From IMG/VR virus record IMGVR_UViG_3300037851_000259, positions 1 through 64,000 of that record: a stretch of DNA of 64,000 nt. One strand, written 5' to 3'. Source of the stretch: a virus. Of this stretch, positions 6,939 through 46,016 are shown piece after piece. How positions within the stretch are numbered: the stretch's first letter is position 1; each line of letters begins with the position of its first letter. The translations under genes were made by a program, and so were the position numbers. The notes beneath the pieces were generated by a model. That model worked only from the letters and a program-made list of their open reading frames with translations. It searched no databases and was not told the origin of the DNA.

Positions 6939-7017
6939 GGCTTGTTCTCCTGTTTGGGCGCGTTACTTAAGCTTAAGCTAATGCCACAAAATGGAAAAGC
7001 CCCGTGTAAGGCGTTTT

Positions 7018-7638: not shown

Positions 7639-7655
7639 GGTGTTCCTCTTTCTTT

Positions 7656-8420: not shown

Positions 8421-8460
8421 ATATAGAATCTGTGCGTATAAACCATGGAGGACTGTTTAA

Positions 8461-8913: not shown

Positions 8914-9197
8914 ACGACTTAAAAAGCATGAATATGTATCTGTTTAGGAAGGCAGGAGGGGACATGTTTGACAGAGCCTCTTGCCTTCTTAAGATTAAGG
9001 ACAAGCTCAGAGGTCTTGGAGTCAAGGTAGTTTCTATTGAAGGCAATAAGCTAGAGCTTGTTTTGAGAGAGCCATTTTTGAAATTTCATTGTTCTGTTTT
9101 CAGGAACAGGTCTATCAAGAAGATGGCTCTTGTCTTGGCTCGATGTGTTGGACTTGACGTCAAGGGCTGTGTCCTTATTCGGCGTCAACCGTTGTAG
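8910..9197 (+). CDS. Hypothetical protein
   Basis: 95-aa ORF with a 4-nt start/stop overlap with the upstream gene. Confidence 0.45.
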   Translation: MNDLKSMNMYLFRKAGGDMFDRASCLLKIKDKLRGLGVKVVSIEGNKLELVLREPFLKFHCSVFRNRSIKKMALVLARCVGLDVKGCVLIRRQPL

Positions 9198-9678: not shown

Positions 9679-9856
9679 AAGCGGCCACCCAAGAAGGATC
9701 TTTAGAGAGAAGATAAGCTACATGCTTTTCCAGGTTTGCTATTCGGTCGTGTATGGCTTGTGCAGAAGCAGTGAATGCCATCACCGCATCCATAAGCTTC
9801 GACATATCCTCTTTTTTGTTCTTGCTCTTAGCTTTGCTAAACAGGTCGGCTGTCAT
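9632..9856 (-). CDS. Hypothetical protein
   Basis: 74-aa ORF in an operon-like arrangement, with a 4-nt overlap with the upstream gene. Confidence 0.4.
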   Translation of the reverse strand: MTADLFSKAKSKNKKEDMSKLMDAVMAFTASAQAIHDRIANLEKHVAYLLSKDPSWVAAYENQQDSNATESSNS

Positions 9857-10260
9857 GGGAGTTCTCCTTCTAGGTAATCGATTCCCTTGAAATCTTTGAC
9901 AATGGTATAAACAGCTTCATCAAACTTGCGACGGTCTACTGCGCCACATATTCCTACTTTTGCGATCTCATCTATCGCAACATCGGCAAACAGCATGCTG
10001 AGGATAATGGCGAATCTTGGGTCAAATTCAGTTCTTTCATGTACCTGGTCAAACCCGGTTCTTAGTATTTTGAATGTTTCATACAGGCTTGGCATCCACT
10101 GAGCCCAAGTACGATCGCTGACCTCTGGGAAGATTGAGCGAACAGTTGCCTCAAAATGAGTCATTCGGATATCTGTATCGCAGTCTTTAAGCGTTTGAGT
10201 CGCTTCTGATATTTTTCTTCGTGTTCCAATGTCTATTACGTTGCTTGGCAGGTCCTTCAT
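9853..10260 (-). CDS. Hypothetical protein
   Basis: 135-aa ORF downstream of the probable portal gene. Confidence 0.5.
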   Translation of the reverse strand: MKDLPSNVIDIGTRRKISEATQTLKDCDTDIRMTHFEATVRSIFPEVSDRTWAQWMPSLYETFKILRTGFDQVHERTEFDPRFAIILSMLFADVAIDEIAKVGICGAVDRRKFDEAVYTIVKDFKGIDYLEGELP

Positions 10261-10324
10261 AAGAAGTATCTCCTGATTGTTCGCTTTGGCTCAATCAGGA
10301 TGATACAGGACGCTGAGTCACTTG

Positions 10325-13320: not shown

Positions 13321-16317
13321 TTAGAAACTGTAGATGAAATTCCCGGTTCTCTGAAGCGGTTGTTCATCTTTGTCTCGGCTATTATCCATTTTCTGCGCGT
13401 CAGGCCATGTAAGCTGAATGCCAGAAGTATATTGATAGTGCATGGACATTGCCTCTTGGAAATTCTCCTTTGTGGATAAGGAAGCTTCCACTGAAGTCAA
13501 CACTCTTTGTGCATCGTCTGGATTGAGAAGTGTCCCAGGTAAATCGCCCATTCTGGCAGAAGACTGCACGACTCCAGCCATCACATATGGATCGATGCCA
13601 TAACGACACGCATCGAGACAATGGGTAGGCATAGAGTCCGTTTCAAACTCTCCAAACAAAAATCCCATTGGACCTTTTCTGTACTGCCATTGCTCAAATG
13701 CTGTGATGATGGCGTCTGTGGTCCCGTCTCTTACAACAATGAGTCCATAGGTCTGTCTGGCCGGGGACCATAGCCTTGCTCTTATCCAAGAGACACCAGT
13801 TTCTATCTTTGAGGGCTTTTTGGACCTAGCTGGCATTCCTAGCTTTGAGGCTATTCCAGGAGCAGACCTATCAGCGGTATCAGGACACAGCAGGTCAAAT
13901 CCGAACTGGTCGTATATCTTGCTCTTCACATACATGAGCCAGTCCATGTTGGAGAAGCCTGGGCTCATTTCTGTATGCAAAATAATGCATTTATCAAGTC
14001 CTCTGTGATACGCAACGAGGACTGCTGCGGCTGGGTCAGTGTATCCAAAGTCAACTCCACAAGTCAGTCTCCATCCGTTAGCCGCAAGTTCCCTTATGAA
14101 CGACTGCTTAGTAAAGAAGGGGACGTTAGCATCCACACCAAATGCGAACTTGTATGCCTCTGGCAGATTCTTACAATGGATGCTCTTGTCGAATTTATTG
14201 AACACTACACCAGAACTTTCTGGCTTCAGGTTAAGAATTTGAGCTTTGACCTGTTCCGGATCTCCAGTTTCTCTAAGAATGGTTCTTACGAACGGAATGT
14301 CTCGAAGGATTGAAGAAGGCTGGCTCTTCTGTCTCACAGAGCGACCTTTGCAAACAAGGAAGGCAGCACAGTTCACACAGCCCGAGAATGCCTTAACCTC
14401 TTCATACATATCCAGATGCATTGGAGGAAGATGCTTCATCTCCTCTTCTTGCTTGATTTCCAGGCTTTCCTTATGAACCCATTGACTCACTTCAGGAAGG
14501 TCGGGTCGATGTACATCTTCTGGACACGGAATCATGATATCTGCCACAGACCACTTGTGCAAGGCGATTCCGTACTTAGGGTCAGCGCTCTGGTTTATCT
14601 TTTCTTGAATAGGGCCAGAAGCCGATTTACGAGATGACAGGTAGATGAATATGGGAGGCTTACCTGTTCTGTCTGGGTCACCAATCATGGCAGATTCTGA
14701 AAGCACACGTTTTTCGAGAAGATCAAGCTCGTCGTAGCATAGAACGGAGGCATGTTGAGCATTAGAGGAATCCTTGCTGGCAACAAGAACCTTCAGGGTT
14801 GCGTTTTCTGATCCTCTAAGATCCGTTAAGGGAAGTTTGTTCAGAGCTTTAACGCGCTTGTTATCTGTTACAGAGTATTTCTGGATAGCAGGAGTTCTCA
14901 TGAACTTGTTGATATATCCAACGGCGGCTAGGGACTGGTCAAGAATGGCAGCCATGTGAATGATATCTCTACCAAAGTGCAACATCAACAAGACTTCTAA
15001 GATAGCTACCGACAAAGTGTTGTGAGTCACTGCTCCATTGTATAGGCAATACAACGAGGTAGGAGAATCCACCGTGATGTCCCAACACCGATGTCTACCC
15101 GCATCTTGCAGCTTGACCCCGTAGCCCTCTTCATTGAAATTATTAGACTCGATTGAGTCATATTCTTCTTTGTATTTCTTTCTCTCTGTTACGATGTGAG
15201 GCGTCAATTCTTTCAAGATTCTCTTGCTGTAATAGGCGTGATTTATTTTGACGTAATACAATGGCCCGTTCACATAGTGTTTGTGATTAGATATGTAAAT
15301 AGTAGGAGTGAACTGCCACAAAGCCTGACATGCGTACACGAATGCATCTACCATCGATTTTGACTGCACTCCAAAATTTATATGTAATTGGAATCCAGTT
15401 TTCCTAGTTATGTATACGGAACCATCCGTATCCATCAATCCAGCAACAAACTCGACCAAGCTTTGCCTATCCCATGTCTTTATCTCTTCAAGATTAGCCA
15501 GTTTTTCGTGGGCTTTTCGTCCTCGAATACAGTCTTCATAGAAATCAGAAAACGCCCATTTTGGACCTTTCTTAGGTGCTCTGATTATGTATGTGTAATT
15601 GCCCTTCATCTTTGTCCAGAAAGTTCCCAGTATCTCTGCCACCTTAGTTGGTATCAGACTGTTTTCACTGGAAATTCTTACTCCGCACTCAGTAGAGCAG
15701 CCATCACCAAGCAATGCCCCTAGTGCATAAGCCAACGGCTCCCGTTTACTTCCAAGAGGCATTTCCAAGGTAACTCGCTTAATCCTCACTCCACCCCTTA
15801 ATTCAGAAGTCTTACGTTCTATGAGTTTGTCTGGAGTACGTGTATCGCAAGTTAGCCATATGTGGTTCTTTGTGCATGTAGCGATGGTGTGTCTGCTGTT
15901 TATGAGGTCTACACAATCCTGCACGCCTTGGTCATGCACGGCGGTTACTTTAACGGGGTTCCCGTTTTCGTCATATACGGTATCGCCTGGTTTAAGATTC
16001 TGTATCTCTACAGGGCCTTGAGGGGTAGCTACCAGGGTTCCTTCTTTAAGACATTTGCAACTATTTCTGGAGGCCGCAACAACAAATGTTGTTCTGTCTC
16101 TTTTGCCAGTGAGGGCCGTTTCGTATACGTCCCACACAAACTGCATAGGGCTTGACGTACTGTCTTCATCTAATGTGTAGTCTGGCAGAGGTATTCCAAA
16201 GAAGGTTTTAATCCATTGGTTGAGTTCTTCTTTTGACCTACAAGGGGTCAGCAGCATTTGCTCATACAGAGCGTCTAGCTTCATCGCTAAAGCTTGGTCT
16301 ATTTGTTCAGTGGTCAC
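13321..16317 (-). CDS. terL: Terminase large subunit, interrupted by an intein
   Basis: - Exteins join to AASRNSCK|TLSVAILE, giving a T4 gp17-like Walker A (SRNSCKT, compare SRQLGKT).
- Walker B: VLCYDELD.
- RNaseH-like nuclease motif: GVDFGYTDPAAAV.
- GTG start at 16317. Confidence 0.85.
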   Translation of the reverse strand: MTTEQIDQALAMKLDALYEQMLLTPCRSKEELNQWIKTFFGIPLPDYTLDEDSTSSPMQFVWDVYETALTGKRDRTTFVVAASRNSCKCLKEGTLVATPQGPVEIQNLKPGDTVYDENGNPVKVTAVHDQGVQDCVDLINSRHTIATCTKNHIWLTCDTRTPDKLIERKTSELRGGVRIKRVTLEMPLGSKREPLAYALGALLGDGCSTECGVRISSENSLIPTKVAEILGTFWTKMKGNYTYIIRAPKKGPKWAFSDFYEDCIRGRKAHEKLANLEEIKTWDRQSLVEFVAGLMDTDGSVYITRKTGFQLHINFGVQSKSMVDAFVYACQALWQFTPTIYISNHKHYVNGPLYYVKINHAYYSKRILKELTPHIVTERKKYKEEYDSIESNNFNEEGYGVKLQDAGRHRCWDITVDSPTSLYCLYNGAVTHNTLSVAILEVLLMLHFGRDIIHMAAILDQSLAAVGYINKFMRTPAIQKYSVTDNKRVKALNKLPLTDLRGSENATLKVLVASKDSSNAQHASVLCYDELDLLEKRVLSESAMIGDPDRTGKPPIFIYLSSRKSASGPIQEKINQSADPKYGIALHKWSVADIMIPCPEDVHRPDLPEVSQWVHKESLEIKQEEEMKHLPPMHLDMYEEVKAFSGCVNCAAFLVCKGRSVRQKSQPSSILRDIPFVRTILRETGDPEQVKAQILNLKPESSGVVFNKFDKSIHCKNLPEAYKFAFGVDANVPFFTKQSFIRELAANGWRLTCGVDFGYTDPAAAVLVAYHRGLDKCIILHTEMSPGFSNMDWLMYVKSKIYDQFGFDLLCPDTADRSAPGIASKLGMPARSKKPSKIETGVSWIRARLWSPARQTYGLIVVRDGTTDAIITAFEQWQYRKGPMGFLFGEFETDSMPTHCLDACRYGIDPYVMAGVVQSSARMGDLPGTLLNPDDAQRVLTSVEASLSTKENFQEAMSMHYQYTSGIQLTWPDAQKMDNSRDKDEQPLQRTGNFIYSF
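15019..16053 (-). mobile_element. Intein (345 aa) with LAGLIDADG homing endonuclease domain, inserted in the terminase P-loop
   Basis: Starts CLKEGTLV (Cys1, codon at 16051-16053) and ends ...NGAVTHN (codon at 15019-15021), followed by a +1 Thr. LAGLIDADG motifs LGALLGDGCS and VAGLMDTDGS. Boundaries verified codon by codon. Confidence 0.85.
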
Positions 16318-25495: not shown

Positions 25496-26293
25496 ATGAT
25501 TGTACAGTGTATAGGGAGACGCCTAGTGTTTGACATATATGGTATTTTGGCCACCGAGTCTGTAGACCGTACTGGCGAACAAATGAGCATCGAAGGCGCA
25601 GATATCGATGATCTCAAATATATCAATGACGATCATAAGTCATCGTTGTTGCTTGAGATTCTTGGTTCGGTCAGACAGGCAAAGAAGATATGGAAAGAGT
25701 CTGATTGCGAAGACCAACTCATGTTCAACTGTTGGAACAGGGTGAAGAAGCCATTCATCTATGTAAGAGGTAGCTTGGCCTCTCCAGAGCATCCTAATGC
25801 AGCTGCTGCCGAAGGTCTCATTCGTTACAGTTTCCAGAATCCTGACTTCCCTGTCGGATGGTCTGTCGAAGGCGCGACCATGCTTAGGCAGGGTCGGAAG
25901 TTGATGAAGACCAAGATCATCGCAGCTTCGCTTACCGTTAAGCCTTGCAATACGGAATGCCTGGTGTTCCCTGTGATGGACCTTCGCAAGTCTCTTAGGG
26001 AAGAGATTCTCCCTGAGAAGTATGCCCACATTGCTCCGGCTCGTAAATATTTCCGAAACATCCCAACGATAGAAGACCGACTTCTTTGTAAGTCCATGCT
26101 TCTTAATGATGTAAAGAGTCTTATGAAATCAGAAGATGCCCTGAGCAATGCCACACTTATAAAGTGCTGGAACTGTGGCGAAGGCAAAATCTTCATGAAG
26201 AACCGTCCTCCTAACCGCTGCGTAGCTTGTGGGGAGTCGTTTCACCTTTCCGACATATACAATGCAAGAAAGAACCCTTCCCCTATCTTTTGA
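25496..26293 (+). CDS. Prohead (capsid maturation) protease, HK97/S78-like, with C-terminal zinc ribbon
   Basis: - ILATESVDRTGEQMSIEGADI fits the aSt..vDR.Gd.i N-terminal motif.
- DDHKSS supplies a His.
- VGWSVEG plus AASLTVKPCNTEC match the lSiGf ... EvSlV..PAn pattern.
- C-terminal CWNCG...CVACG. Confidence 0.55.
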   Translation: MIVQCIGRRLVFDIYGILATESVDRTGEQMSIEGADIDDLKYINDDHKSSLLLEILGSVRQAKKIWKESDCEDQLMFNCWNRVKKPFIYVRGSLASPEHPNAAAAEGLIRYSFQNPDFPVGWSVEGATMLRQGRKLMKTKIIAASLTVKPCNTECLVFPVMDLRKSLREEILPEKYAHIAPARKYFRNIPTIEDRLLCKSMLLNDVKSLMKSEDALSNATLIKCWNCGEGKIFMKNRPPNRCVACGESFHLSDIYNARKNPSPIF

Positions 26294-26305: not shown

Positions 26306-28372
26306 ATGAAACATCACATACAGAACATGCAATCGCTTATGAAAGCGAAAGACACTAAGACCAAAGAAATCAAGACAGCCGGATATCAAACTCCTCCAGT
26401 TATGCGTACTAAGGAACGAGTTGCGGGTCCTGGAAGCAAGGCCGTTGTAGAAGGTAAACAGAAAGTTGCAGAAGATAAAGGGGCTTACTCTGAACAAAAA
26501 TTCGACCCAAATCCTACACTCTTTGGCAAGAGGGCAGGTAACTATCACGATTTCCTCAAAACACAAGCGTCCAATCTGAATGAATCTGCTGATAGAGCGA
26601 GGACACTTAGAGAAGGCACAGTGGATAAATATGGTGAACCTTTCAAATCAGCGCCCTTTAGCACCAAAGAAGCTCATTCCCGCATTTTAGATGATGCTCT
26701 TGACTTTGCATTTCGTGGCGAGGAAGACCCAGAATGGGACCAGGCCGCAGAACTTGATAAACAGAGAAAGAAGAAGTTTGGGTTTAATGACCACGCGCAT
26801 AAGCTCCAACTGGCTAAGAAACGTGGCGATGGTGAAACCCATGCATATTTGATATCAAGTGCAGCAGAAAACAAGAAAGAAAAAGCCCAACAAGGCAAAG
26901 AATTTGGTGTCAAAGAAGTCGGTCCAGTCAGCAGGTACAAAAGAGACCTTCCTCCTATTGAACAAGGTATTGTTACTCCTGTTCGAACGCCTGAATCTCC
27001 TAAAGGCCAACACCATGCATTAGCTGATGCTCTAGGAATGGCTTTCTCTAATGCTGGCAGTGGTAAATATTCTGAAGGTCATATCAATGCAATCAAAGCC
27101 ATAGGTGACCATTTAGATGAAGTCGGCGATCTTAAAGGTCGGGTTCCAAACTTTAGCAAAGAAACCATTGATTTTGTAAAGAATAAATATCCAAACTTCT
27201 CCGTAAGTTCTGCGACTTCACGCCATGAAGATGGGACTCCAATGTTTTTGTCCAATAGTGAGGCAGCGTTGCTTGGTTCTTTGGTGAAAGTCCGAGACAG
27301 AAGTCCTAAAGTAAACCAAGTCATCACTAACTTAGTGACTAAAGCTGCCGGTTCGTACATGAAGGCTGAACCTGGTATGGATGAGCCGACTAAAGCCAAA
27401 ATATTTTCCAATCCTCCTACAGCTACAAAACCGACTCCACATGCTTTGGATACATGGTCTCAGTCTTTGCTTGGAAGCACTAAAGGAGAAGGTCCGGGGC
27501 TGGTCAAAAGAGGCGTTGACGCTGCTGTTCGCACCAGTCAAGACAAGACTTTGCACGGAGTCAAACAACACATTCTTGATACCATGGTTAAAAACGGACA
27601 CGACCGACAGAATGCTGTAAAAGCTGTCAGCGTCATGGACCCTTTCATCAGAGCTGCTCTTGGAGAAACTGTAGGTAAGAGCATTGATTACCCTCTTGAG
27701 AAGTCAAACGGACAAAGAGAGGGGTCAGCTGGTATGACAGGTGGCAAATTTGACAAGCGTCAATATGAAGGGTCTTCTAGTGCTGAAATAGTTGGCAGTG
27801 GAGACACTGCAAGAAATTCAAGACCATCTTCACAAAAGAAAGAACCGACATACATTGCTCAACCCCCTGCTCCTGGAATAGTGGCTGGTCCCGTCCCTAA
27901 AGACCGTCAGCCCATCGTTCCTAATGCTCCAAGACCTTCAGATCAAAACCTGGCTACTGCCAAAGAAGATTTTGAAAGGCAAAAAGCTCTAAAACAAGCC
28001 GATACCTCAGCGGTCCAAACTCTTGACAAACTTCGCCAAGCTTATTTGAAGAAGTTCCAAGACCAGAGAACTTCTGTCCCAGTAACCGTGAAACGGCCTG
28101 ATACGGGAACTTCTTCTGTCGATTTCACAACTGGAGTAGCAAGCCGTTCAACTGGTAGCGGCGAAGGCATTTTGCATGATGTCCAAGCTGGTATGAGCGA
28201 AGACGACCTTCTTCGACAGATATTTGAACCTCATTCCAAAAAGCCTGAATCGCTTCCTGAAGGTCATAAGTTTGGTGTTGCTGATATCCCCCCTGGTCCT
28301 CCTGCACCTAAGCCAGATTCTTCCAAATATCTTGATAAAGTCAGACAGCTTAAGCTAAGAGCTAAGAGCTAA
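26306..28372 (+). CDS. Large basic, low-complexity protein (possible internal virion or scaffold-related protein)
   Basis: 688-aa Lys/Pro/Ser/Gly-rich ORF directly after the protease gene. Ends in a TAA embedded in a 3x7-nt repeat (see findings). Confidence 0.6.
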   Translation: MKHHIQNMQSLMKAKDTKTKEIKTAGYQTPPVMRTKERVAGPGSKAVVEGKQKVAEDKGAYSEQKFDPNPTLFGKRAGNYHDFLKTQASNLNESADRARTLREGTVDKYGEPFKSAPFSTKEAHSRILDDALDFAFRGEEDPEWDQAAELDKQRKKKFGFNDHAHKLQLAKKRGDGETHAYLISSAAENKKEKAQQGKEFGVKEVGPVSRYKRDLPPIEQGIVTPVRTPESPKGQHHALADALGMAFSNAGSGKYSEGHINAIKAIGDHLDEVGDLKGRVPNFSKETIDFVKNKYPNFSVSSATSRHEDGTPMFLSNSEAALLGSLVKVRDRSPKVNQVITNLVTKAAGSYMKAEPGMDEPTKAKIFSNPPTATKPTPHALDTWSQSLLGSTKGEGPGLVKRGVDAAVRTSQDKTLHGVKQHILDTMVKNGHDRQNAVKAVSVMDPFIRAALGETVGKSIDYPLEKSNGQREGSAGMTGGKFDKRQYEGSSSAEIVGSGDTARNSRPSSQKKEPTYIAQPPAPGIVAGPVPKDRQPIVPNAPRPSDQNLATAKEDFERQKALKQADTSAVQTLDKLRQAYLKKFQDQRTSVPVTVKRPDTGTSSVDFTTGVASRSTGSGEGILHDVQAGMSEDDLLRQIFEPHSKKPESLPEGHKFGVADIPPGPPAPKPDSSKYLDKVRQLKLRAKS

Positions 28373-28590
28373 GCCAGTTGATAAGTCAGCAGACCTTCCT
28401 GAAGACCTTGAGAAAGGCAGGAAGCTTAAGTCTGTGCTTCGCCCCATCAAGAAGTCTCCTAAGGCCCACGTAGAAGCTATGGCCGAAATCCATAGAAAGC
28501 CTGAGGCTCCTACGCAAAAGGACATCTTCAAAGCCAATGCTAAAGATGTCCTAGCTAGATACGAAAGAGCAAAGCAGGGATTGCCACAGC

Positions 28591-31434
28591 TTAAGCCGTA
28601 ATCCTCACCTTCCGCCTCTTAGGGACTTCTTCCTTAGGAGGCTTCCTAACAAAGCCAAGCGACTCTATGGAATCTGCGTGGACTAATCTGTAGGCGTCTA
28701 TCATAAGAGCTTGCCCACAACCCTTGATAGTAACCAAAGGTGCTCTCAGTCCGTTGTCTTCAATCTTCCAATCTGAGTAATGAGACTTAAGTATGTCGGG
28801 CTGTTTAATCCTGTTACCCAATGCAGAAGCATAGGCTTTGACCTTGTCTTCGTTTTCTGATTCCACTGACAGTTCAGCGCACCAGAACTCAAGAGGATAT
28901 TTGTGCTTAAGAAAAGCGGTAGCGTAAGAAACCACCGCATAAGACACGGCGTGGCTAAAATTGAAGGAATACCGAGCACTTGCCTGAAGCACATGGAAGA
29001 AATCCAGTGCCTGGGACTCTTTCCATCCTCTTTCTACCAGCTTGTTCACAAGTATCCGACCGTGTTCCGCCAGCGTTTGAGCATCTTTCTTGGAAATACC
29101 ACGGCGTACAACCTCCGCTGTTTCATAGGTATACCCAGCCAAATCTCTGTACGAACGTAGCATCTGTTCTTGAAGCAGAGGAGCCCCTGCTGTGTTGCCG
29201 AATATAGGTTCAAGTTCTGGATGGATGTAGTGAGGCTTCTGTTTGCCCTGTTTCACAGCTACATAGTAGTCGAGCATGTTCTTGTATCCTTCAACAGGAG
29301 AAGGAGCGTCGATTACGGCCGGTCTATATGCTGCAACCAGATTAGCAATGTCTCCAATGGATTCGGGTTTCGTGTCTTCGCATAGCTTGGTGATGCCCTG
29401 AGTTTGTGTCTGAAACGTGCCTTCGGTATCTCCCTTCCAGTAAACAGTCTTGTATACGTCCAGGTCATGAGGCAATTCTCCCCATTCAAAACTCACCCCA
29501 TGTCTCTGTTCAATTAGTTCAAAGGCTTTTTGTATGGTGTGCATTTTTGTTACACCTAAGATATCCACCTTAAGACCGCCGACATATTCCACGTCTTTCG
29601 GGTTGTAACCAGTGCAGAGGGTTCCTGCCTTTCCGCCTACTCTAAAAACAGGGAGAAAGTGATGTACAGGAATAGAAGAAATTAGCATTCCACAAGGGTG
29701 TGCCGATTTTTGTCTAATAACTCCACACATACGAACTACCATGCTCCAGATTTCTGGATTGTCGTCTGCATATTTTTGGAGTTCTTTGTTCTTTTCGATA
29801 GCTCCTTCTACGTGCTCCCCATCTTCATCTGAATATCCGAACAGCCAGTCTGTTTCATTAACGCCTTGAGGAACCGTGTCCATAGTCTTTAGCAAGACTT
29901 CAGTCTGTACTCTGGCCTTACCAAAGAAGTGTCTTTCCGCATCTCTAATGGCAGAACGAGGCTTTAATAAGGTGTCGATTGATATAGGAATGCATCTGTC
30001 CTGAAACATGTCGTTAATGATGGGGGTGATCATGTCTCTGTCTGGGAAATCTAGGTCCATGTCTGGCGGGTTCATGGATTTAATTCTGCCAAGAGTCAAG
30101 AACCGTTCAAATTGAAGTCCGTATTTGATAGGGTCTGCCGTTGATACTCCTAGGCCATAGGCGCAGAAGCATCCAGACCCAGATCCTCTAAGGTTCATGA
30201 GTATCTTGTGTTTCCTGGCTTCAGTGGCTATGTCTGACACCAACAGCAAATAGCCCATTCCGTCCAACTTATCTGAAGAGCCAAGCACACTTAGTTCGTA
30301 GTCGATGCGTTCTTTCAGCTCTTTGTTTTCAAGGTCCACACGACCAAACTCTTTTATGCGCCTAATCACTTCTTCTTTGGCGTCACCACCCTTAAACCCA
30401 GGTACAAGAAAACCACGTTCTTTGGCTGTAAGGAACTCGTACTTGTCGAAATGGGTGACAAACTCATGGGTGTTGTCAATAAGCTCAAGGATGTCCTTTT
30501 CACCCAATCCCTGTGTGTGCTGGGCAAGCTCTGCATACTCTGCTGCCCCTTTAACGTGTTGGTAATAGGGCATGATCCAATCAGAACCGAACCGCTTATT
30601 GTCCTGGATGATTTTGTCTGACACTTCAGCATAGTGAGCGTCTTGGGCTGCTATGCGCTTAACTCCCCTTGGTTTAGTGACCTCCTCCCAACGCACTCTA
30701 TTTGACTCACGGATGACGTCAGGGTGGGTAAACCATGCCAAGGTATCATTAACTACCAAACGGGGCTCTAGCAGCGTTTCTGACTGCGCTTCGTACTCAT
30801 AGGTTAAATCGTCTACTATCCACTCATCATAGATGTTCTCAACGCCTATGGTGTCAATCATCAGCTGCAATCTCTCTTGAGCTTCTGCAACGTCTCCTCG
30901 TTTGATGATTGGAGCATTAAGCCATCCACCAATACAGGCAGTTCCAACGACTATTCCGTGCTTGGCTACTTCCAGGAAGTCTTCCCAATACATACAGCCC
31001 TTAACGTCACCGAAGGCTGTCTTCATTCTTGGTTCTGAGTAAATCAGTGGGGTGAGCTTGCAGTAGGCTTCAAATGCTTCTCTGGTCTTGAAGTATATGG
31101 TGATGTGGTAAGTGGCATCCGCCTTGTGTTTGTCATTAGGCCAGTACAGGTAGGCTTCTACACCGTGTATGACCTTTAGACCTGCTTTTAGCCCTATCCT
31201 GTGGGCTGCTGCTGCACTATTAAGTGTACCGTGCTCACTGAAGGTTACATGGGTCATGCCCAGAGCCTTCATACGCTTTACCATTCTGTCTACTGAAGAG
31301 GCTCCATCAAGAGAACCAGCATCAGAGTGCATATGGAAACAACAGGCTAAGGTTTTCCCTTTGTATTCATTGGGATAGTCTTCTTTTGGAATGTATAGGT
31401 CTTTTTCTTTGAGTAATGTGTTCAATGTTTTCAT
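28591..31434 (-). CDS. dnaE: DNA polymerase III alpha subunit (DnaE-type, PHP domain)
   Basis: PHP motifs CCFHMHSDAGSLDG and THVTFSEHGTL. Also LRGSGSGCFCAYGLGVSTADPIKYGLQFERFL, PDMDLDFPDRD and KSAHPCGMLIS. Confidence 0.9.
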   Translation of the reverse strand: MKTLNTLLKEKDLYIPKEDYPNEYKGKTLACCFHMHSDAGSLDGASSVDRMVKRMKALGMTHVTFSEHGTLNSAAAAHRIGLKAGLKVIHGVEAYLYWPNDKHKADATYHITIYFKTREAFEAYCKLTPLIYSEPRMKTAFGDVKGCMYWEDFLEVAKHGIVVGTACIGGWLNAPIIKRGDVAEAQERLQLMIDTIGVENIYDEWIVDDLTYEYEAQSETLLEPRLVVNDTLAWFTHPDVIRESNRVRWEEVTKPRGVKRIAAQDAHYAEVSDKIIQDNKRFGSDWIMPYYQHVKGAAEYAELAQHTQGLGEKDILELIDNTHEFVTHFDKYEFLTAKERGFLVPGFKGGDAKEEVIRRIKEFGRVDLENKELKERIDYELSVLGSSDKLDGMGYLLLVSDIATEARKHKILMNLRGSGSGCFCAYGLGVSTADPIKYGLQFERFLTLGRIKSMNPPDMDLDFPDRDMITPIINDMFQDRCIPISIDTLLKPRSAIRDAERHFFGKARVQTEVLLKTMDTVPQGVNETDWLFGYSDEDGEHVEGAIEKNKELQKYADDNPEIWSMVVRMCGVIRQKSAHPCGMLISSIPVHHFLPVFRVGGKAGTLCTGYNPKDVEYVGGLKVDILGVTKMHTIQKAFELIEQRHGVSFEWGELPHDLDVYKTVYWKGDTEGTFQTQTQGITKLCEDTKPESIGDIANLVAAYRPAVIDAPSPVEGYKNMLDYYVAVKQGKQKPHYIHPELEPIFGNTAGAPLLQEQMLRSYRDLAGYTYETAEVVRRGISKKDAQTLAEHGRILVNKLVERGWKESQALDFFHVLQASARYSFNFSHAVSYAVVSYATAFLKHKYPLEFWCAELSVESENEDKVKAYASALGNRIKQPDILKSHYSDWKIEDNGLRAPLVTIKGCGQALMIDAYRLVHADSIESLGFVRKPPKEEVPKRRKVRITA

Positions 31435-32154: not shown

Positions 32155-34803
32155 GTGAACGCCTTATACAAATTCCAAGTCAAGAAACCCTCTACCACCA
32201 GAAAAGGCTACTTCCCCTACAGTAAGCCTGGGGTGGAGCTTGAGTGGATGAAGGGGTTGGATAAGGCTGAGAAGACTAAGCAATGGCTTTTCTTCTACAA
32301 TGTTGCTGTGTTGTGGGGGAAGGGTAAGAGCAGCTGGTACCAGAGAGTAGATGAAACAAGTCCTATTAAGGACACGGTGTTTGTTCTTGACTTTGATAAA
32401 TCCCATTGTAAAGAAGGACTTGTAACTGAGGCTTTTGAGAGGTTCAGGAAGAGCCTTAGTGGGAAAGCTTTGCTGGTTAAGAGCTTTAGTGGGTTTCATG
32501 TGGTGTATGTCCTTGAAGGGGACCACCGCAAGGAATATTGGGATATACAGATATCTGTCGTGCTGAAGTATTTCCCTGAGATGTTAGATGAGCTTGATGT
32601 GGGGGTGTGTGGGAACCATAGGAATGGGTTCTTTCATAGTCAGCATGTTGAGAAGTGGGCTAGGGAAGGTGTTGTTGACGTTGGGGCTGTAGGGACTTGC
32701 TGGTTCTCCTTTAAGGCAAAGCTGTCTGAGTTGGACGTTTCGTTTGGGTGTAAGGATGCTTTTGGGCTATGGAAGGCTTGGAGGAAATATGGAGAAGACA
32801 AGCGAGGCGGACGAAAGATTTCAGATGCAGCCGCCAGAAGATTTCGTGGAATATTGGCTGTTTCCGACTACAGGAACAACAAAGCTCTATACGCAAGTGG
32901 CTGCGAAGGAGCGGAAGAATCAGAACGTAAAGCCTACTGGAACTGTATCGAGAGCCATGTTCACGATGAAGCTGTCAAAAATGAAGGAATACCAAGCGTT
33001 TCTGGCAAGCTGGCCCTGCGAACTGTCAGACCTGGAGCAGTGGCGAGTGAAGGATATGTTGGAAGAGGTGGAGAGGATATTAACAGAAGCCTCTTACAGA
33101 GAAATAGCCAGAAGGTCCATGGACACATCCGCCGCAATAGTGGCTGGAATGAAGGAAATCAGGAAGCGGGACTATATGGACATAGCGGCTCAGACCGTTT
33201 TCTGGAATTTGTACAAGCTGTCAAGCTTCTGTGTAACCAGAGAGCAGTCGACCTTGAGGTCCTGGGCTACTTCCTTTCAGAGGATTGCTTACGAAGCCAC
33301 CGCTACTGGAGCATCAAATCAGAAGAATCGGATTTCCAGGTTTTCTTTGGAATCGTGCGACAGGTTCTGGAAGGAAATCATGGGCTCGGAAGAAATCTTA
33401 GAGCTGAATGGTCAAGCGTTAGCGAATGGCTTAGATGTGCGGAAGTGTGTTTGGGAGCTGACCCAGCTCCTGACAACGAACATGGATATGTCGCAAAACT
33501 CGCCAATAAGGGCTTCGGACTATACCTTGCTACACACGGCTTATGGGTCTCAAGGGTAAGAAAAGTCAGTCTCTCTACTGACAAATACACCTTTGATGTA
33601 TCGAAGTTTGTTCAGGATGTCATGTCCAACACAAACGTAGATGATTTGATTTGTTCTTCTAGGGCAAAGGTTTTCCTTAAGAGCAAATTCAAGAACGGTG
33701 TTGCGTGGCTTGAAGAAGGAGCCAGGAAACTCTTGGCCTACTTCGCTAAGTTCTGGGGCCTAATTCTGAATGGTAAGCCCATTGGTCTTGGCGTAGGTAA
33801 TGTCTCTGAGTTCTTTCAGTGCAAGAACATTTCGGAATGTTCTGCAATAAGGAAGATATTTCTGTCACTCCTGTCTTCTAAGAAGACAGCATATGTTCCA
33901 AAAGTTAAGCAAACTCAATACTTTATGGAAGTTGAAGCCCTCAAGAAATACTTCGTTTCTGTTGATGGGGAAGAGAGAAAGGGGAACATTCACGTTCCCG
34001 GCACCGTTGAAGAACTAGCTTCTAAACTCGGAAAGGGCAATACGTTCGAGACATTTCGTCGGTATGCCAAGCCTATGTATCGTGTGCATGGATACGAGAG
34101 GAGCCTTGAGATGTGGCATCAGGCTATTGACTTATCCACTGCTAACGATAAACATTACAGGCACGGAGACATTGATAGGTTCGTAGAGAAAATTGCGAGG
34201 CAAGAATATGAAGCCAATAAAGAAGACCCAATGTTCCATTACCGAATTGGAGTTGCTAAGGACGAAGGACAACCAGATCAGTGTGGATGTGGTGCCCAGC
34301 ATAGCGAACTGCGTTTGCTTCCCTCAGTGCGACTTTTCGATAGTAGAGATGCCGACGGAACCAGAGGAATGCCTGCCTCTGTTTCAGACTCTGTACGACA
34401 GTCAGAAGCAGAACCACATTTGTGTGGTGACAGTGAGACAGCCGAGGAAGACTCGGCTGTCTACATTGAAGAACCTGACTATAGTGGAGGAAGCTGGATT
34501 CAAATTCCACGACACAGTGACTATCGTGTCCCAAGACGCTTACAAGTGCGTTCCGTCAAATCTGACCCCTCTGGGGGAAGTGGTGTTTCTGTTCACGAAA
34601 GGGAACGACCTGAACAAAGAAGCCTCTTCATGGTTCCACGAAGAAAAAGGCGACTGTACAAACGTGTGGGACGTTATGCCTCAAGAAAGAGAAGTCACGT
34701 TCAAGGACATGACCGTGAGTCGTCACTTCTGTTTGGAGGTTGGGGCCATTCTGGGGTCACTGGCCAGCCCGCTCCTGTGCCGGAGGTTTCTGATTGTGGG
34801 TAA
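32155..34803 (+). CDS. AEP-type primase-polymerase-like protein (N-terminal about 200 aa); coding status of the rest of the 882-codon ORF is uncertain
   Basis: DxD motif VFVLDFDKSH and sGxGxH motif VKSFSGFHVVYVL. In 32789-33559 and 34208-34803 the translation becomes Gly/Arg/Ser-rich while another frame looks more protein-like (see findings). Confidence 0.5.
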   Translation: MNALYKFQVKKPSTTRKGYFPYSKPGVELEWMKGLDKAEKTKQWLFFYNVAVLWGKGKSSWYQRVDETSPIKDTVFVLDFDKSHCKEGLVTEAFERFRKSLSGKALLVKSFSGFHVVYVLEGDHRKEYWDIQISVVLKYFPEMLDELDVGVCGNHRNGFFHSQHVEKWAREGVVDVGAVGTCWFSFKAKLSELDVSFGCKDAFGLWKAWRKYGEDKRGGRKISDAAARRFRGILAVSDYRNNKALYASGCEGAEESERKAYWNCIESHVHDEAVKNEGIPSVSGKLALRTVRPGAVASEGYVGRGGEDINRSLLQRNSQKVHGHIRRNSGWNEGNQEAGLYGHSGSDRFLEFVQAVKLLCNQRAVDLEVLGYFLSEDCLRSHRYWSIKSEESDFQVFFGIVRQVLEGNHGLGRNLRAEWSSVSEWLRCAEVCLGADPAPDNEHGYVAKLANKGFGLYLATHGLWVSRVRKVSLSTDKYTFDVSKFVQDVMSNTNVDDLICSSRAKVFLKSKFKNGVAWLEEGARKLLAYFAKFWGLILNGKPIGLGVGNVSEFFQCKNISECSAIRKIFLSLLSSKKTAYVPKVKQTQYFMEVEALKKYFVSVDGEERKGNIHVPGTVEELASKLGKGNTFETFRRYAKPMYRVHGYERSLEMWHQAIDLSTANDKHYRHGDIDRFVEKIARQEYEANKEDPMFHYRIGVAKDEGQPDQCGCGAQHSELRLLPSVRLFDSRDADGTRGMPASVSDSVRQSEAEPHLCGDSETAEEDSAVYIEEPDYSGGSWIQIPRHSDYRVPRRLQVRSVKSDPSGGSGVSVHERERPEQRSLFMVPRRKRRLYKRVGRYASRKRSHVQGHDRESSLLFGGWGHSGVTGQPAPVPEVSDCG
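32789..33559 (+). CDS. Nested +1-frame ORF (256 aa) inside the 882-codon ORF, hypothetical
   Basis: ATG at 32789 preceded by GGAGG (32780-32784). The translation is helical and ordinary (SDLEQWRVKDMLEEVERILTEASYREIARRSMD), and codons show a G-at-position-1 bias. Confidence 0.35.
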   Translation: MEKTSEADERFQMQPPEDFVEYWLFPTTGTTKLYTQVAAKERKNQNVKPTGTVSRAMFTMKLSKMKEYQAFLASWPCELSDLEQWRVKDMLEEVERILTEASYREIARRSMDTSAAIVAGMKEIRKRDYMDIAAQTVFWNLYKLSSFCVTREQSTLRSWATSFQRIAYEATATGASNQKNRISRFSLESCDRFWKEIMGSEEILELNGQALANGLDVRKCVWELTQLLTTNMDMSQNSPIRASDYTLLHTAYGSQG

Positions 34804-34924
34804 CTTGGAGAACGGCCATGCTGAGTTTTCTAAGAAGTTTGGCATGTCTGTGTGTGCATTTACAGAAGACGAACTCTCTGCTAAGAGAGTAATCAGATAT
34901 TACAACTCCCTTTGTGAAAACTAA
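34208..34924 (+). CDS. DNA methyltransferase-like protein with degenerate catalytic and AdoMet motifs
   Basis: It has the layout of N6/N4 MTases (PF01555-like):
- CDFSIVEMPTE sits where VDLIITDPPY is expected.
- EEAGFKFHDTVTIVSQD (GF..d.iiW.K) and TNVWDVMPQERE are present.
- RRFLIVGNLEN sits where gR.fiGiE is expected.
- There is no clear DPF.GSGTT motif.
The RBS is GAGG plus 7 nt. Confidence 0.5.
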   Translation: MKPIKKTQCSITELELLRTKDNQISVDVVPSIANCVCFPQCDFSIVEMPTEPEECLPLFQTLYDSQKQNHICVVTVRQPRKTRLSTLKNLTIVEEAGFKFHDTVTIVSQDAYKCVPSNLTPLGEVVFLFTKGNDLNKEASSWFHEEKGDCTNVWDVMPQEREVTFKDMTVSRHFCLEVGAILGSLASPLLCRRFLIVGNLENGHAEFSKKFGMSVCAFTEDELSAKRVIRYYNSLCEN

Positions 34925-41158: not shown

Positions 41159-41255
41159 CCATTGGCATTGACTGGTGTGCCAATTGTCCGGCGAAGCTGC
41201 ATGACGATAATTGGTGGTTATGCCCCTCTGCTACCACCGTATATGGAGATTCCTT

Positions 41256-44200
41256 ATGTCTTACTCCGGTCCACAACTCCTCTCTGACCTTGTTTTTTAC
41301 AGAACTTACTCAGCGACTAAGCAAAGCGGATTCAAAGAGACTTATGACGAAACAGTAGACAGAGCCATGCAAATGCACATGGACAAGTTCCCTAAGCACA
41401 CTGATGCTATCGCCAGAGCTTTTGACTTTGTTCGTCGCAAAGTGGTTATGCCCTCTATGCGATCTCTCCAGTTTGCTGGAAAACCTATTACTAACGAGAA
41501 TTTAAGACAATTTAACTGTTTTAGTAGAGATACAGAGTTCATAACAAATGAAGGCATTAAGAGCTTTTATGACTTTCAAGATGGCGATGAAGTCACAGTC
41601 CTATCTAGAAAGCGTCAATGGAAAAAGGCTACCGTTAGAAAGTTTGGGAAAGAGCGTTTATATGAACTGAAGGTCGGCTATGGACGTTCTGGAATAAAGA
41701 TTATCAAGACCACAGCGAATCATCGTTGGCCCGTAGTCATGCCAGACAAAGGAGGGGGCACCACAGAAATTGTCCTTACTAAGGACCTTGTGCATGGACA
41801 AAAGCTTAGTAAAAACAAAGTTCAGACATATATTGGCAATTATTGCAAAATCGGGCTTATGCATGGAATTGTGTTTGGCGACGGAACTAAGCAAACGACA
41901 GATCCTGAATGTTTTTCTGAACCGACTTGCATAAAGCTCTGTGACGAAAGCGTGGAACTCAGTAAGCACTTCTTTGCTGGGCGTCATTGTTCTGAGATTG
42001 TGGAAAAAGGAATGCCGCGACCAGACAGATATACTGTGCATGAACTTCCTGCAAATTGGAAGAAGTTGCCAGATGACATGAACCGTAGGTATATTCTTGG
42101 TTTTTTAATGGGGTGGTTTGCCGCTGATGGATATGTAACTAAATCCGGTCAAGTGATGTTGCATTCGCATAAACTTTCTAATCTTGAGTGGGCTGCTGAC
42201 CAGCTTCAGATGATGGGAATTCAAACTTCTTCCATAAGAAAAACGAGGGATACCAATCCATACAATGGCGAGCCTGCTGATTTATGGGTACTGCCGTTCC
42301 ATAATGATGGGTATCTCACTTCAGAGTTTTTTGTTAGAACTAAGCATCTTGATAGATTCCATAAAGTTGAAGAAAAACATGAATGGAGAGTCGTTTCTGT
42401 TACCGAAACAGACGTGGAAGAAGATGTCTGGTGCGTTCAGGAATCAGAAACAGAGACGTTTACTCTGAAGAACGGCCTGTTGACCATGAACTGTTCCTTC
42501 CTGGGCATGGATAGCTGGAAAAGCTTTGCTGACCTCTTCTACATCCTCTGCTGTGGGTGTGGCGTAGGCTACTCTGTGCAGTCCCACTGGCTCAGACACC
42601 TCCCCCCTGTTCAGAAGGGAAGTCCTGGATATTTCGTTGTTCCCGATACCAGAGAGGGCTGGGCAGATTCTTATCTTGAATTGTTTCAGAATCCCGAAAT
42701 GGAATTCGTATATGGGTTTATTCGCCCAGCAGGTTCTGTCTTGTCGTCTGGCGGTACAGCTTCTGGTCCTTGGGCTCTTAAAGAGGCTCACGAAAAGATT
42801 CGCAACATACTTCGCAGAGCCATGGGCCGAAGACTTCGCGCAATCGAAGCTCATGACATCGCCTGTCACATCGCAGATTCGGTCGTTGTCGGAGGCACAA
42901 GAAGATGTCTTCCTTATGACTCTAAGATTCATACACGTCGTGGCCTTATTGACATCAAGGATGTAGTTGTTGGAGATTCTGTACAAACCTCTAAAGGTTA
43001 CTCTGATGTTTCGGCTGTGTTTGACCAAGGGGTTCAGAAAACTCTGCTCATTCACACAGATGCAGGAACTCTTGAATGTACAGGGAATCATAAGGTTGCA
43101 GTAATAAACGGATATCAATCTTATGAATGGAAAATGGCAAAGGACCTTTCGTCAGAAGATAGGTTGGTATTCAACAACCTTCCTCTTCATGCAATTCCTA
43201 GCAGGTTTCCAGAAGAAATATATGAGGTCAGCTCATATGCAACGACTCTAAAGAACATTATCCTACCTGAGCTTTCTGAAGAAATATCATGGTTTATTGG
43301 GTATTTCCAAGGGAACGGACATGTCGCTATAAGAACTGATAACGATAACAAAAAACATGGGATAGTTTCTGTTTCAGTCCCATCTAATGCTCCAGATAGA
43401 TTAGAACGAGCTGTTTCCTGTCTCAAGCAATTTGGAGTTAATGTTACTATCAGTGAGACTAACGGTAACTGGATGGTTGCTAAGGTTGTATCCATGAGGC
43501 TCGCTACGTATTTTCTAGAGCACGTGAAAAAACCCAAAGTATCTATGGTTGTTCCAGATTTCATATCCACTGGCTCTTACGAGCAGCGTGCAGCTTATGT
43601 AGCCGGTCTGTTTGATGCGGACGGGGCTTCTAATAATAGACCTGTTAACATCTCTTCTATTTATCCTGATTTCTTGAAATCAATTCAGTCTGTGTGTGCC
43701 TCTTTAGGCATTCCAACTTATATCAAATTGTCAAGAGACGCTTCTGGAAACTGGAAAGAGCTGTTTCACCTTTGCTTCAAGTCATCAGGACGACACAACC
43801 TGTCTAAGATTGTTTCTAGGTTTGGAACTAAGACCTTGACTGAAAGGAAATCCACTCGATGTTCTTATTCGTACAAGTCGTCTGATGTTAAATGGAAGAA
43901 ATACCCTAAACATATTCGTATTTCTGTAGACGCTCTTAACATAGATGCGCAGCCGTTTGTTCCTGTTAAGGTACTAAGCATTGAAGAAGGTCGAGAAGTT
44001 TCAACTTTTGACATAGAAGTGAAAGATGTTCATGAATTTTATGCAGAAGGATTTCTCGTTCACAACTCTGCCTGTATCTCCATGTTTGACCCTGAAGACG
44101 AAGAGATGCGTCTTAGCAAATCTGGCAAGTGGTGGGAAAAGAACCCCCAAAGAGCACGAGCCAATAACTCAGCGGTCATTCACCGTAAGGACCCTGATTT

Positions 44201-46016
44201 CAAGAGTAAGTATTTCGATGTGATGATGGCAATGTTTGAGTCTAAAGCTGGCGAGCCTGGGATTCTTCTTACCAACGACAACGACTATGGAAAGAACCCG
44301 TGTCAGCCTGCTAATGCCTTTCTCCTTACTCCAGAGGGCATTAAGAAGCTTGGAGATGTAAACATCGGGGATACCATTTGGTCTGGTAAGAGATGGACTA
44401 AGGTGGTGAACAAGTGGAGCACGGGAGTTAAGCCCGTATCGCTTTACATGACTCGGTATGGTTCGTTCCTTGGTACGTCCAATCATCGTGTGGTTGAGAA
44501 TGGCGTTAAGGTAGAAGCCAAGGATGCGACCGCTATTGACGTTTGCACGGGTCCTGCCCCTGAGTCTCTTGAAGACTACACAAGTGGCTCATTTGAGCAA
44601 GACCGAGGTCTCATTGATTTTGACCGCATGACATTTACTCTCCCGATAGAAGAGCGCCAGAAGTATTTGCGTAGATTCTTTGACCACAACGGAAGCATTA
44701 CCAACAACGGGAACACAATCTCGTTGATGTGTCACAGCGCTTTTGGTGTCTGGCTTCAGATGCTTCTGTCCAGTATGGGTGTCAGAAGCACTATTTCGGA
44801 TATAAAGAAGAACGCTAAAGGCAAGCATCGGGTAGTTATTACACATGACAAAGACATCTTTTTGAAGCTGATAGGCAAAGAAGCGTTGGCAGACTATTGT
44901 GTTCCAGACGATGAGAACCCACTTGTTCCGTTCACTTCCTCCCCAATCCTTGAGGTTGTTGATAAGGGCGAACATGAGGTGTTTGACCTTACTGTAGACG
45001 ATCCTGAGCACACTTACTGGACAGGTGGACTGCTTGTGTCTAACTGTGGCGAAGTGTCTCTGCGAGCCGTCTGCAATCTTACCGAAGTGAACGCTCCAGC
45101 TTGCGCTAATAAGTTTGAATTTCTTCAGGCTGTGAACGCTGCTGCCTTCATTGGGAAACTTCAGTCCACCTACACCAACTTTGGATATGTTCAAGACAGA
45201 TTCAAGCGTTGGGCAGAAGAAGAGCGTCTGTTGGGTATCTCTATTACGGGACAAGCTGACGCATGGCGGCTTATTGGTGACGCAGATGTACTGAGAAGTG
45301 GTGCAGCAGAAGCTCTCAGGACAGACGAAGAATGGTCGTATATTTTGGGTATGGGTCTCAGCCACCGACTGACCACAACAAAGCCATCTGGTAGCGCCTC
45401 CCTTCTTCTGGGGTCTGCACTCATTGGTGCGGTGTCCAGTGGCATTCATGCTTCTCATGCCGCTTTTTACATCAGAAGCGTTCGACTGGACAAAGTTGAC
45501 CCCGTTGCTAGGTATCTGATTAACGTCTTTGGTCTGGGTGAGCCTTGTTCAAATTCCATAATTGAACAGGACGCTATGTCACCGAATCTCATTGTTGTCA
45601 GAGTTCCTGTTAATAGTTCGGGCTCGCTCCTTAGGGGTAACGAAACAGCAATTCAGCTGATGAATCGTGCAAAGCATGTGTTCAATAACTGGATTAAACC
45701 CGCTCATCGTGAAGGCCCCAACTGTCATAACGTAAGCCTTACGGTGAACTACAAAGAGCATGAAAAGGGTCAAATCATGGACTGGATGCTTGAGAACGTA
45801 GACTGTTACGATGGCATCTCATTCCTTCCTTATTCGGATAGTACCTATGTGCAGATGCCGTTTGAAGAAATCACAATGCTTGACTATGCGGACTGGAGAG
45901 ATAAGTTTGTTGGAAAGGAAATTGACTTTTCCAAGATAAACTTTGCCAATACAGTAGACAAGAGGTATGGTGAAGCGGCTTGCTCAGGAGGCCAATGCAC
46001 AATAACCTCCTTGTAA
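41256..46016 (+). CDS. nrdJ: Class II (adenosylcobalamin-dependent) ribonucleotide reductase NrdJ, interrupted by three inteins
   Basis: - Extein motifs: VFYRTYS, PSMRSLQFAG...FN|CSF, GGTRR|SA, NP|CGEVSL..CNLTEVN.
- C-terminal CSGGQC.
- Start at the ATG at 41256 (GGAG plus 8 nt) rather than the track start at 41211. Confidence 0.85.
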   Translation: MSYSGPQLLSDLVFYRTYSATKQSGFKETYDETVDRAMQMHMDKFPKHTDAIARAFDFVRRKVVMPSMRSLQFAGKPITNENLRQFNCFSRDTEFITNEGIKSFYDFQDGDEVTVLSRKRQWKKATVRKFGKERLYELKVGYGRSGIKIIKTTANHRWPVVMPDKGGGTTEIVLTKDLVHGQKLSKNKVQTYIGNYCKIGLMHGIVFGDGTKQTTDPECFSEPTCIKLCDESVELSKHFFAGRHCSEIVEKGMPRPDRYTVHELPANWKKLPDDMNRRYILGFLMGWFAADGYVTKSGQVMLHSHKLSNLEWAADQLQMMGIQTSSIRKTRDTNPYNGEPADLWVLPFHNDGYLTSEFFVRTKHLDRFHKVEEKHEWRVVSVTETDVEEDVWCVQESETETFTLKNGLLTMNCSFLGMDSWKSFADLFYILCCGCGVGYSVQSHWLRHLPPVQKGSPGYFVVPDTREGWADSYLELFQNPEMEFVYGFIRPAGSVLSSGGTASGPWALKEAHEKIRNILRRAMGRRLRAIEAHDIACHIADSVVVGGTRRCLPYDSKIHTRRGLIDIKDVVVGDSVQTSKGYSDVSAVFDQGVQKTLLIHTDAGTLECTGNHKVAVINGYQSYEWKMAKDLSSEDRLVFNNLPLHAIPSRFPEEIYEVSSYATTLKNIILPELSEEISWFIGYFQGNGHVAIRTDNDNKKHGIVSVSVPSNAPDRLERAVSCLKQFGVNVTISETNGNWMVAKVVSMRLATYFLEHVKKPKVSMVVPDFISTGSYEQRAAYVAGLFDADGASNNRPVNISSIYPDFLKSIQSVCASLGIPTYIKLSRDASGNWKELFHLCFKSSGRHNLSKIVSRFGTKTLTERKSTRCSYSYKSSDVKWKKYPKHIRISVDALNIDAQPFVPVKVLSIEEGREVSTFDIEVKDVHEFYAEGFLVHNSACISMFDPEDEEMRLSKSGKWWEKNPQRARANNSAVIHRKDPDFKSKYFDVMMAMFESKAGEPGILLTNDNDYGKNPCQPANAFLLTPEGIKKLGDVNIGDTIWSGKRWTKVVNKWSTGVKPVSLYMTRYGSFLGTSNHRVVENGVKVEAKDATAIDVCTGPAPESLEDYTSGSFEQDRGLIDFDRMTFTLPIEERQKYLRRFFDHNGSITNNGNTISLMCHSAFGVWLQMLLSSMGVRSTISDIKKNAKGKHRVVITHDKDIFLKLIGKEALADYCVPDDENPLVPFTSSPILEVVDKGEHEVFDLTVDDPEHTYWTGGLLVSNCGEVSLRAVCNLTEVNAPACANKFEFLQAVNAAAFIGKLQSTYTNFGYVQDRFKRWAEEERLLGISITGQADAWRLIGDADVLRSGAAEALRTDEEWSYILGMGLSHRLTTTKPSGSASLLLGSALIGAVSSGIHASHAAFYIRSVRLDKVDPVARYLINVFGLGEPCSNSIIEQDAMSPNLIVVRVPVNSSGSLLRGNETAIQLMNRAKHVFNNWIKPAHREGPNCHNVSLTVNYKEHEKGQIMDWMLENVDCYDGISFLPYSDSTYVQMPFEEITMLDYADWRDKFVGKEIDFSKINFANTVDKRYGEAACSGGQCTITSL
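41517..42491 (+). mobile_element. NrdJ intein 1 (325 aa) with LAGLIDADG-type endonuclease
   Basis: Begins CFSRDTEFITNEG (TGT at 41517) and ends LLTMN (AAC at 42489-42491), followed by a +1 Cys. Motifs GLMHGIVFGDGT and LGFLMGWFAADGYV. Confidence 0.85.
42906..44066 (+). mobile_element. NrdJ intein 2 (387 aa) with LAGLIDADG-type endonuclease
   Basis: Begins CLPYDSKIHT (TGT at 42906) and ends GFLVHN (AAC at 44064-44066), followed by a +1 Ser. It splits GGTRR|SA. Motifs FIGYFQGNGHV and VAGLFDADGAS. Confidence 0.85.
44301..45044 (+). mobile_element. NrdJ intein 3 (248 aa), smaller, endonuclease domain degenerate or atypical
   Basis: Begins CQPANAFLLTPEG (TGT at 44301) and ends GLLVSN (AAC at 45042-45044), followed by a +1 Cys. 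It splits NP|CGE. Only one LAGLIDADG-like segment (LRRFFDHNGSI). Confidence 0.8.

Follow-up and report, generated by a model that had tools for sequence, protein, structure and literature searches.

An ordinary slipped-strand frameshift mutation adds an extra, perfect copy of a unit already present twice, loses the reading frame at once and leaves the coding statistics of the downstream sequence as they were, and removing one copy restores a single open reading frame (ORF). We describe here a locus of this kind in the first 64,000 nucleotides (nt) of IMG/VR virus record IMGVR_UViG_3300037851_000259 (the window, meaning this whole 64-kb stretch), which belongs to an uncultured phage contig of ~187 kb, where an ORF of 688 amino acids (aa) ends inside three tandem copies of a heptanucleotide and is followed by 75 further codons in the +1 frame. 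The locus shares all of these features with the ordinary event and differs from it in nothing essential; the unit here has a TAA, so no out-of-frame extension is added to the product. Short ribosomal hops over stop codons between matching codons, and the bypass in T4 gene 60, are established phenomena, and the locus resembles prfB +1 frameshifting and T4 gene 60 bypassing in its stop at the frame junction, its +1 coding continuation and the identical codons that flank the stop. Unlike those two, it is without a slippery P-site codon, a correctly spaced Shine-Dalgarno (SD)-like stimulator or a stem-loop, and its stop-adjacent matching codon lands in the wrong frame. In the protease-scaffold modules of tailed phages and herpesviruses, a prohead protease precedes a scaffold or is fused with it, and the scaffold touches the capsid protein through its C-terminus. 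The locus is similar in that a gene of the assemblin/prohead-protease fold lies directly upstream and the downstream protein is charged, fast-evolving and, in a low-confidence model, helical plus disordered; it differs in the size of that protein, which at 688-1124 aa in these phages is far larger than classical scaffolds, and in the several small genes that some relatives carry. In the simple sequence repeat (SSR) loci hmw1A and hmw2A of Haemophilus influenzae, as here, the number of heptanucleotide units decides whether the full protein is produced; documented switches at the hmw loci have 13-38 units, and hmw1A carries an intragenic (AATTTTG)14 tract with a frameshift (PMC2651432). Unlike those bacterial loci, the phage tract has 3 units, its two-unit state is the only one that is ON, and two assemblies of it are identical.

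Four features define the junction:

28353-28373, plus strand: tandem repeat AGCTAAG x 3.0 at 100% identity, from Tandem Repeats Finder (TRF) and a separate run-length count
26306..28372, plus strand: 688-aa ORF, coding in frame +2, truncated at the repeat as assembled
28370-28372, plus strand: TAA that ends the 688-aa ORF, from repeat unit 3 (ORF translation)
28374..28601, plus strand: tail of 75 codons and a TAA in the +1 frame, the putative former C-terminus of a 762-aa protein (codon classifier and frame scan)

Read directly, positions 28354-28374 are GCTAAGA, GCTAAGA and GCTAAGC, so that an earlier interpretation of this DNA made without database searches (the sequence-only reading) was correct in describing three heptamers there, as TRF and the run-length count also found, and in placing the stop of the 688-aa ORF within the third. 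Each repeat unit carries one TAA and the three TAAs of the tract occupy three different frames; since the unit length, 7, is not divisible by 3, any tract with at least three of these units leaves no frame free of a stop. Removal of one unit (28361-28367) gives an uninterrupted 762-aa ORF with the junction ...QLKLRAKPVDKS..., which bears out the sequence-only reading in its claim that deleting one unit fuses the tail; its further claim that adding two units does the same is wrong, since the TAA of unit 3 is still met first, in frame. With 3, 4 or 5 units translation ends at this same TAA and the long ORF exists only with 2 units, leaving the change from 3 to 2 as the single productive one. The tract exceeds chance. 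The window holds no other perfect repeat of at least three units with a period of 5-12, and in first-order Markov simulations a perfect period-7 repeat of at least three units is expected 0.005 times per 64-kb window, whereas heptamers in two units stand at chance level (4 observed, 3.4 expected).

The 75-codon tail is unmistakably coding. From 28359 the +1 frame (phase 0) has no stop until the TAA at 28599-28601, a run of 80 codons of which 75 lie past the repeat, exactly as the sequence-only reading had given it together with its translation. A two-class codon log-ratio scored the tail at 0.46 per codon (genes 0.31 +/- 0.11, off-frames -0.61 +/- 0.26), and was dropped as a coding test for being poorly discriminating, an antisense shadow at 5379-5705 having scored 0.44. 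Its replacement was a six-class codon classifier, comprising the sense frame, two shifted frames and three antisense frames, which in leave-one-gene-out validation on 75-codon windows was right for 145/145 sense windows and called another frame sense in 1/725. This classifier places the whole tail in the sense class with a posterior of ~1.0. In a 60-nt sliding scan the coding frame moves from +2 to +0 exactly at 28355-28370 and the tail score peaks in the first window after the repeat; the signal of the minus-strand polymerase gene takes over at ~28595, with no non-coding gap between the two convergent genes. The coding periodicity that the sequence-only reading had noted in the tail is matched by both the classifier posterior and the flip of frame at the repeat.

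Further evidence of a lost register comes from direct repeats that straddle the shift:

28326-28354 and 28402-28430, plus strand: direct repeat pair of 29 nt, 79% identical, spacing 76 (69 + 7)
28253 and 28395, plus strand: direct repeat CTTCCTGAAG, spacing 142 (135 + 7)
28345 and 28586, plus strand: direct repeat ACAGCTTAAGC, spacing 241 (234 + 7)

All three spacings are a multiple of 3 plus 7, and the copies come into a shared codon register only after one unit has been removed. In the 29-nt pair, the copy at 28326 is translated as KYLDKVRQLK in the main frame and that at 28402 as EDLEKGRKLK in the tail frame. When the tail is compared with the main protein as a whole, similarity is weak, with a best E-value of 0.024.

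The position at which the restored ORF ends was compared with that in related phages, which we reached via the genes on either side:

25496..26293, plus strand: prohead (capsid maturation) protease with a C-terminal CxxC...CxxC zinc ribbon, directly upstream of the affected gene (other gene callers use a start at 25526, giving 255 aa)
28591..31434, minus strand: convergent gene for a DnaE-type DNA polymerase III alpha subunit, which at its stop shares 11 nt with the end of the tail ORF

Synteny is established by five related phage contigs in which the protease is 52-66% identical, and the order of protease followed by a large gene is kept in all 5; in the two closest related phages (L001/L002 and L005/L008) the polymerase is 62-63% identical. 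The large gene after the protease encodes 917 aa in L001 (12813-15566), 825 aa in L005 (5535-8012), 705 aa in L003 (10040-12157) and 1124 aa in L006 (7661-11035). By blastp, none of these four proteins has similarity to that of the window, nor do those of the two closest relatives to each other, and C-termini were compared by position only, without sequence alignment. In L001/L002 and L005/L008 the positional counterpart stops either 1 nt away from the polymerase stop or 4 nt within it. The restored 762-aa ORF, which ends 11 nt inside the convergent polymerase gene, agrees with these ends, the proteins themselves having no detectable sequence similarity to it. The sole contig with a true ortholog (L016) carries a protease 95% identical to that of the window and a large ORF 65% identical over 614 aa, with a nonsynonymous divergence (dN) from the window of 0.257 for the large ORF and 0.034 for the protease (~7.5 times). 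The comparison shows the large ORF to be a real gene and one under very fast evolution. The gene is hypervariable, with products of 688 to 1124 aa among these phages, and is the fastest-evolving in its neighbourhood.

Direct homologues of the restored product were sought widely. In a 5.8-billion-cluster index the fused 762-aa protein matched nothing beyond products of the window itself (P0001 and the 55-aa P0002), and phmmer against 1.84 billion representatives gave the same outcome. Among GenBank phages there was no homologue of the fused protein by tblastn and no match to the locus by blastn, and scans of IMG/VR, JGI metagenomes and GTDB genomes by protein, by two-sequence alignment and by a gapped DNA pattern allowing 1-4 units found no other copy. 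Pfam and PHROGs gave no family match for either the large protein or the tail.

We consider that the locus records, with a probability of roughly 0.7, a recent slipped-strand duplication from two to three units that truncated a hypervariable protein in the scaffold position. The ancestral gene after the prohead protease would have encoded a protein of ~762 aa and run 11 nt into the convergent polymerase gene, and would have held, by chance, two adjacent AGCTAAG copies encoding K-L-R-A-K. Slipped-strand mispairing in replication would then have made a third copy and, because the unit is 7 nt long and contains a TAA, this extra copy would both shift the frame and supply an immediate in-frame stop, giving a product of 688 aa and stranding the last 75 codons in the +1 frame. 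The change appears to have run from two units to three. It also appears to be recent, because there is no difference among the three units and the 75 stranded codons remain free of stops with full coding statistics; the truncated allele would be the majority allele in the sampled population. Of the interpretations offered in the sequence-only reading, a very recent 7-bp duplication truncating the gene is the one that found support, from the perfect repeat, the chance-level two-unit state, coding that continues with a change of frame only, internal repeats that enter register after removal of 7 nt, and an ORF end restored to where the counterparts in relatives end. The duplication looks like ordinary slippage, with neither a switch nor a recoding signal proven, and the locus is another instance of a well-known type of event.

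Several observations weigh against this account. The C-terminal 150 residues have no sequence-level ortholog in any searched collection, and the long form is nowhere directly attested; the L016 contig (3.8 kb) reaches only to about window position 28150, leaving ~200 nt to the repeat. L003 and L006 have separate genes of 104-141 aa between the large ORF and the polymerase, making a two-gene layout not foreign to the clade. It would also be somewhat surprising for a truncated allele to be in the majority if the protein is a scaffold, because the C-terminus of a scaffold would be expected to matter. The locus matters mainly for annotation: the 218-nt interval from the 688-aa ORF to the polymerase gene should be treated not as intergenic but as the C-terminus of the upstream gene, stranded out of frame. 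The locus also offers a dated snapshot of change in the fastest-evolving gene of the phage's head module.

One alternative concerns an ORF within the tail, no other part of which could be translated independently:

28434..28601, plus strand: 55-aa ORF with a GTG start and a weak SD, predicted as gene P0002 by one caller

The duplication may have split one gene into a stable arrangement of two, both kept, with a functional 688-aa protein and a 55-aa protein expressed from GTG 28434. This would fit the gene call, the presence of small separate genes in the equivalent position in L003 and L006, and the C-terminus of the truncated protein, which is still an amphipathic basic helix (YLDKVRQLKLRAK) as in its positional counterparts. 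The GTG is the earliest ATG, GTG or TTG in the tail frame, 25 codons into the open frame, and is preceded by AGGAAG ~10 nt upstream, an SD that is weak and distant when set against those of other genes of the phage; the sequence-only reading had likewise seen no convincing SD-backed start at the beginning of the tail. However, the strongest coding signal lies in the 20 codons between the repeat and this GTG (sense posterior 0.998, with a false-positive rate of ~3.6% at 20 codons), which would be outside such a gene. The 55-aa product also bears no relation to the small genes in L003 and L006 and was without a homologue anywhere in the 1.84 billion representatives searched by phmmer. We therefore regard two retained genes as unlikely, and the 55-aa 'gene' is probably a remnant of the C-terminus of the upstream gene.

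It is likewise doubtful that the tract is a functional device, whether a low-copy hypermutable site for long and short forms or a 7-nt ribosome hop that gives a minor long form. As a hypermutable contingency locus, it would toggle between the 762-aa and 688-aa forms in the phage population by slippage between 2 and 3 or more units. The tract is perfect and intragenic, the affected gene evolves faster than any in its neighbourhood, and three heptamer units reach the minimal threshold (>2) for candidate SSRs used for Haemophilus, but they fall far below the 13-38 units of the hmw loci (PMC2651432). Reversible toggling by gain and loss of units was not found for this tract: 3, 4 and 5 units all stop at the unit-3 TAA, so every tract of at least three units is OFF and the long form comes from one unit number only. 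The two available assemblies are identical in unit number and the 64 kb hold no other such tract. The slipped-strand on/off or long/short switch raised in the sequence-only reading is thus not supported by a tract of 3 units with one ON state and an identical second assembly, and we judge it rather improbable. Mixed unit numbers, if true, would represent a rare case of repeat-mediated length switching in a phage structural-module gene; no result here requires it. For a hop of +7, the candidate pairs are GCU 28361 to GCU 28368 and AAG 28364 to AAG 28371, and no pause is expected at these take-off codons because they are not adjacent to the stop. The stop-adjacent AGC (28367) has its nearest match in the AGC at +5 (28372-28374), the wrong frame for the tail. 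No stable local RNA structure was found in a fold of 28340-28470 (z = -0.34; 68/200 shuffles fold as well), and no SD-like element lies at prfB-type spacing, the only sequence resembling an SD being AAGAG, which abuts the stop.

The three-unit tract could instead be a sequencing or assembly artefact, or an assembled minority defective variant, in which case the dominant genome would have two units. The window is a metagenomic contig that opens with a perfect 25-nt array at 1-127, possibly an assembly error, and it holds a second odd ORF pair (32155..34803 and 34193..34924, with a 611-nt overlap). Against this, Logan contig L017 (SRR12687606, 31.7 kb) is 100.000% identical to the window over 11.5 kb, the three units included, so the tract is not an artefact of one assembler; base-for-base agreement between the JGI contig (187 kb) and the Logan contig is silent on variation in unit number within the population. 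At 21 nt, the repeat also falls below the k-mer lengths usual in assembly, and short-read data do not typically err in this way. Altogether, an artefact or minority variant appears very improbable.

Least credible of all is that some ribosomes reach the tail by shifting +1 or -2, or by hopping +7 from unit 2 to unit 3, to give some full-length protein: the tail is intact and coding-like, its frame is +1 of the main ORF and pairs of identical codons span the stop at a distance of exactly 7 nt, but AGA GCU AAG AGC UAA reads GAG CUA AGA GCU in the +1 frame, leaving the codons AGA, GCU, AAG and AGC at 28358-28369 unable to re-pair there, the take-off codons for the +7 hop and the stop-adjacent AGC are placed as described above, and the suggestion of +1 recoding at the stop in the sequence-only reading thus has neither a re-pairing codon at 28358-28372 nor, at z = -0.34, a stable fold behind it.

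The 688-aa protein is Lys/Pro-rich and has no Cys. A single-sequence AlphaFold2 (AF2) model of the fused protein reached a predicted local distance difference test (pLDDT) score of 48, a low confidence at which the all-helix-plus-coil model was used for helix/coil character only. Since the gene upstream encodes a prohead protease, the large ORF stands in the position of a scaffold or internal head protein, and the 688/762-aa protein would by this placement be scaffold-like or an internal head protein; no sequence match or confident structural match identifies it as a scaffold (Pfam, PHROG), its sole homologue being that of one close relative. All versions of the large protein lack Cys and share a similar short amphipathic N-terminal helix (MKxx-hydrophobic-xxKxx...), which may be a targeting signal. 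The AF2 model of the protease has a mean pLDDT of 81.5, and its top two PDB matches are herpesvirus assemblins, both weak (E = 4e-3 and 9e-2). In BFVD it has 140 matches at E <= 1e-3, many of them named prohead or head-maturation protease or COG3740; some of these protease matches are 500-700 aa long and are likely protease-scaffold fusions. Residues H37, H89, S113 and four Cys (C224, C227, C242 and C245) are invariant. A sequence search of PDB with the protease profile returned zinc-ribbon noise only. The four-Cys zinc ribbon is unusual for the prohead protease family, and one relative is labelled in its source as 'ribosomal protein S27E'.

Other genes in the window encode a portal, an intein-containing large terminase, a GroEL-like chaperonin, a DnaB helicase, a ribonucleotide reductase and the DnaE-type polymerase, which is at most 28% identical to those of GenBank phages; one further gene has a weak, sub-threshold match to a tail-sheath C-terminal domain (E = 0.007). 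The array at 1-127 consists of TCCTAAAGCAGTATACTCAGGTATA x 5.1, a 25-nt unit at 100% identity, and is either a genuine terminal or regulatory repeat or a contig-end artefact. In the odd ORF pair, 32155..34803 (882 aa) and 34193..34924 (243 aa) lie on the same strand; homology of the 882-aa ORF to a 668-aa protein of the relatives stops at residue ~677 (~nt 34185), homology of the 243-aa ORF to their 229-aa protein begins at its own residue 21, and the codon signal moves from +1 to +2 near 34400. The ORF at 32155..34803 may have lost its stop, or another frame anomaly may be present. On the minus strand at 5064-6230, a 388-aa ORF has a KxDG ligase-like motif and atypical codon usage, and its antisense frames score more coding-like than the gene, which together suggest that it was recently acquired. 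Stop-codon reassignment, raised by in-frame stops in the shadow at 5379-5705, was rejected because the minus strand carries the real gene at that place, and ordinary stop usage (TAA 24, TGA 15, TAG 4) also counts against it. The large terminase gene at 13321-16317 has an apparent intein (Hint plus LAGLIDADG), and the ribonucleotide reductase gene at 41211-46016 has weak endonuclease/HNH matches that may mark an insertion. Polymerase inteins occur in several relatives, in which polymerase lengths range from 1146 to 1383 aa. The more distant L010-L013 (IMG/VR) have, at ~6800-11700, small genes of ~134, 246, 253, 149, 185, 110, 280 and 154 aa in place of the large ORF. Strains of this phage group may often differ by indels or start sites, because L001 and L002, near-identical contigs of the same phage from different samples, differ in called gene lengths (DnaB 410 and 453, and others 58 and 94, 668 and 628, and 519 and 514 aa).

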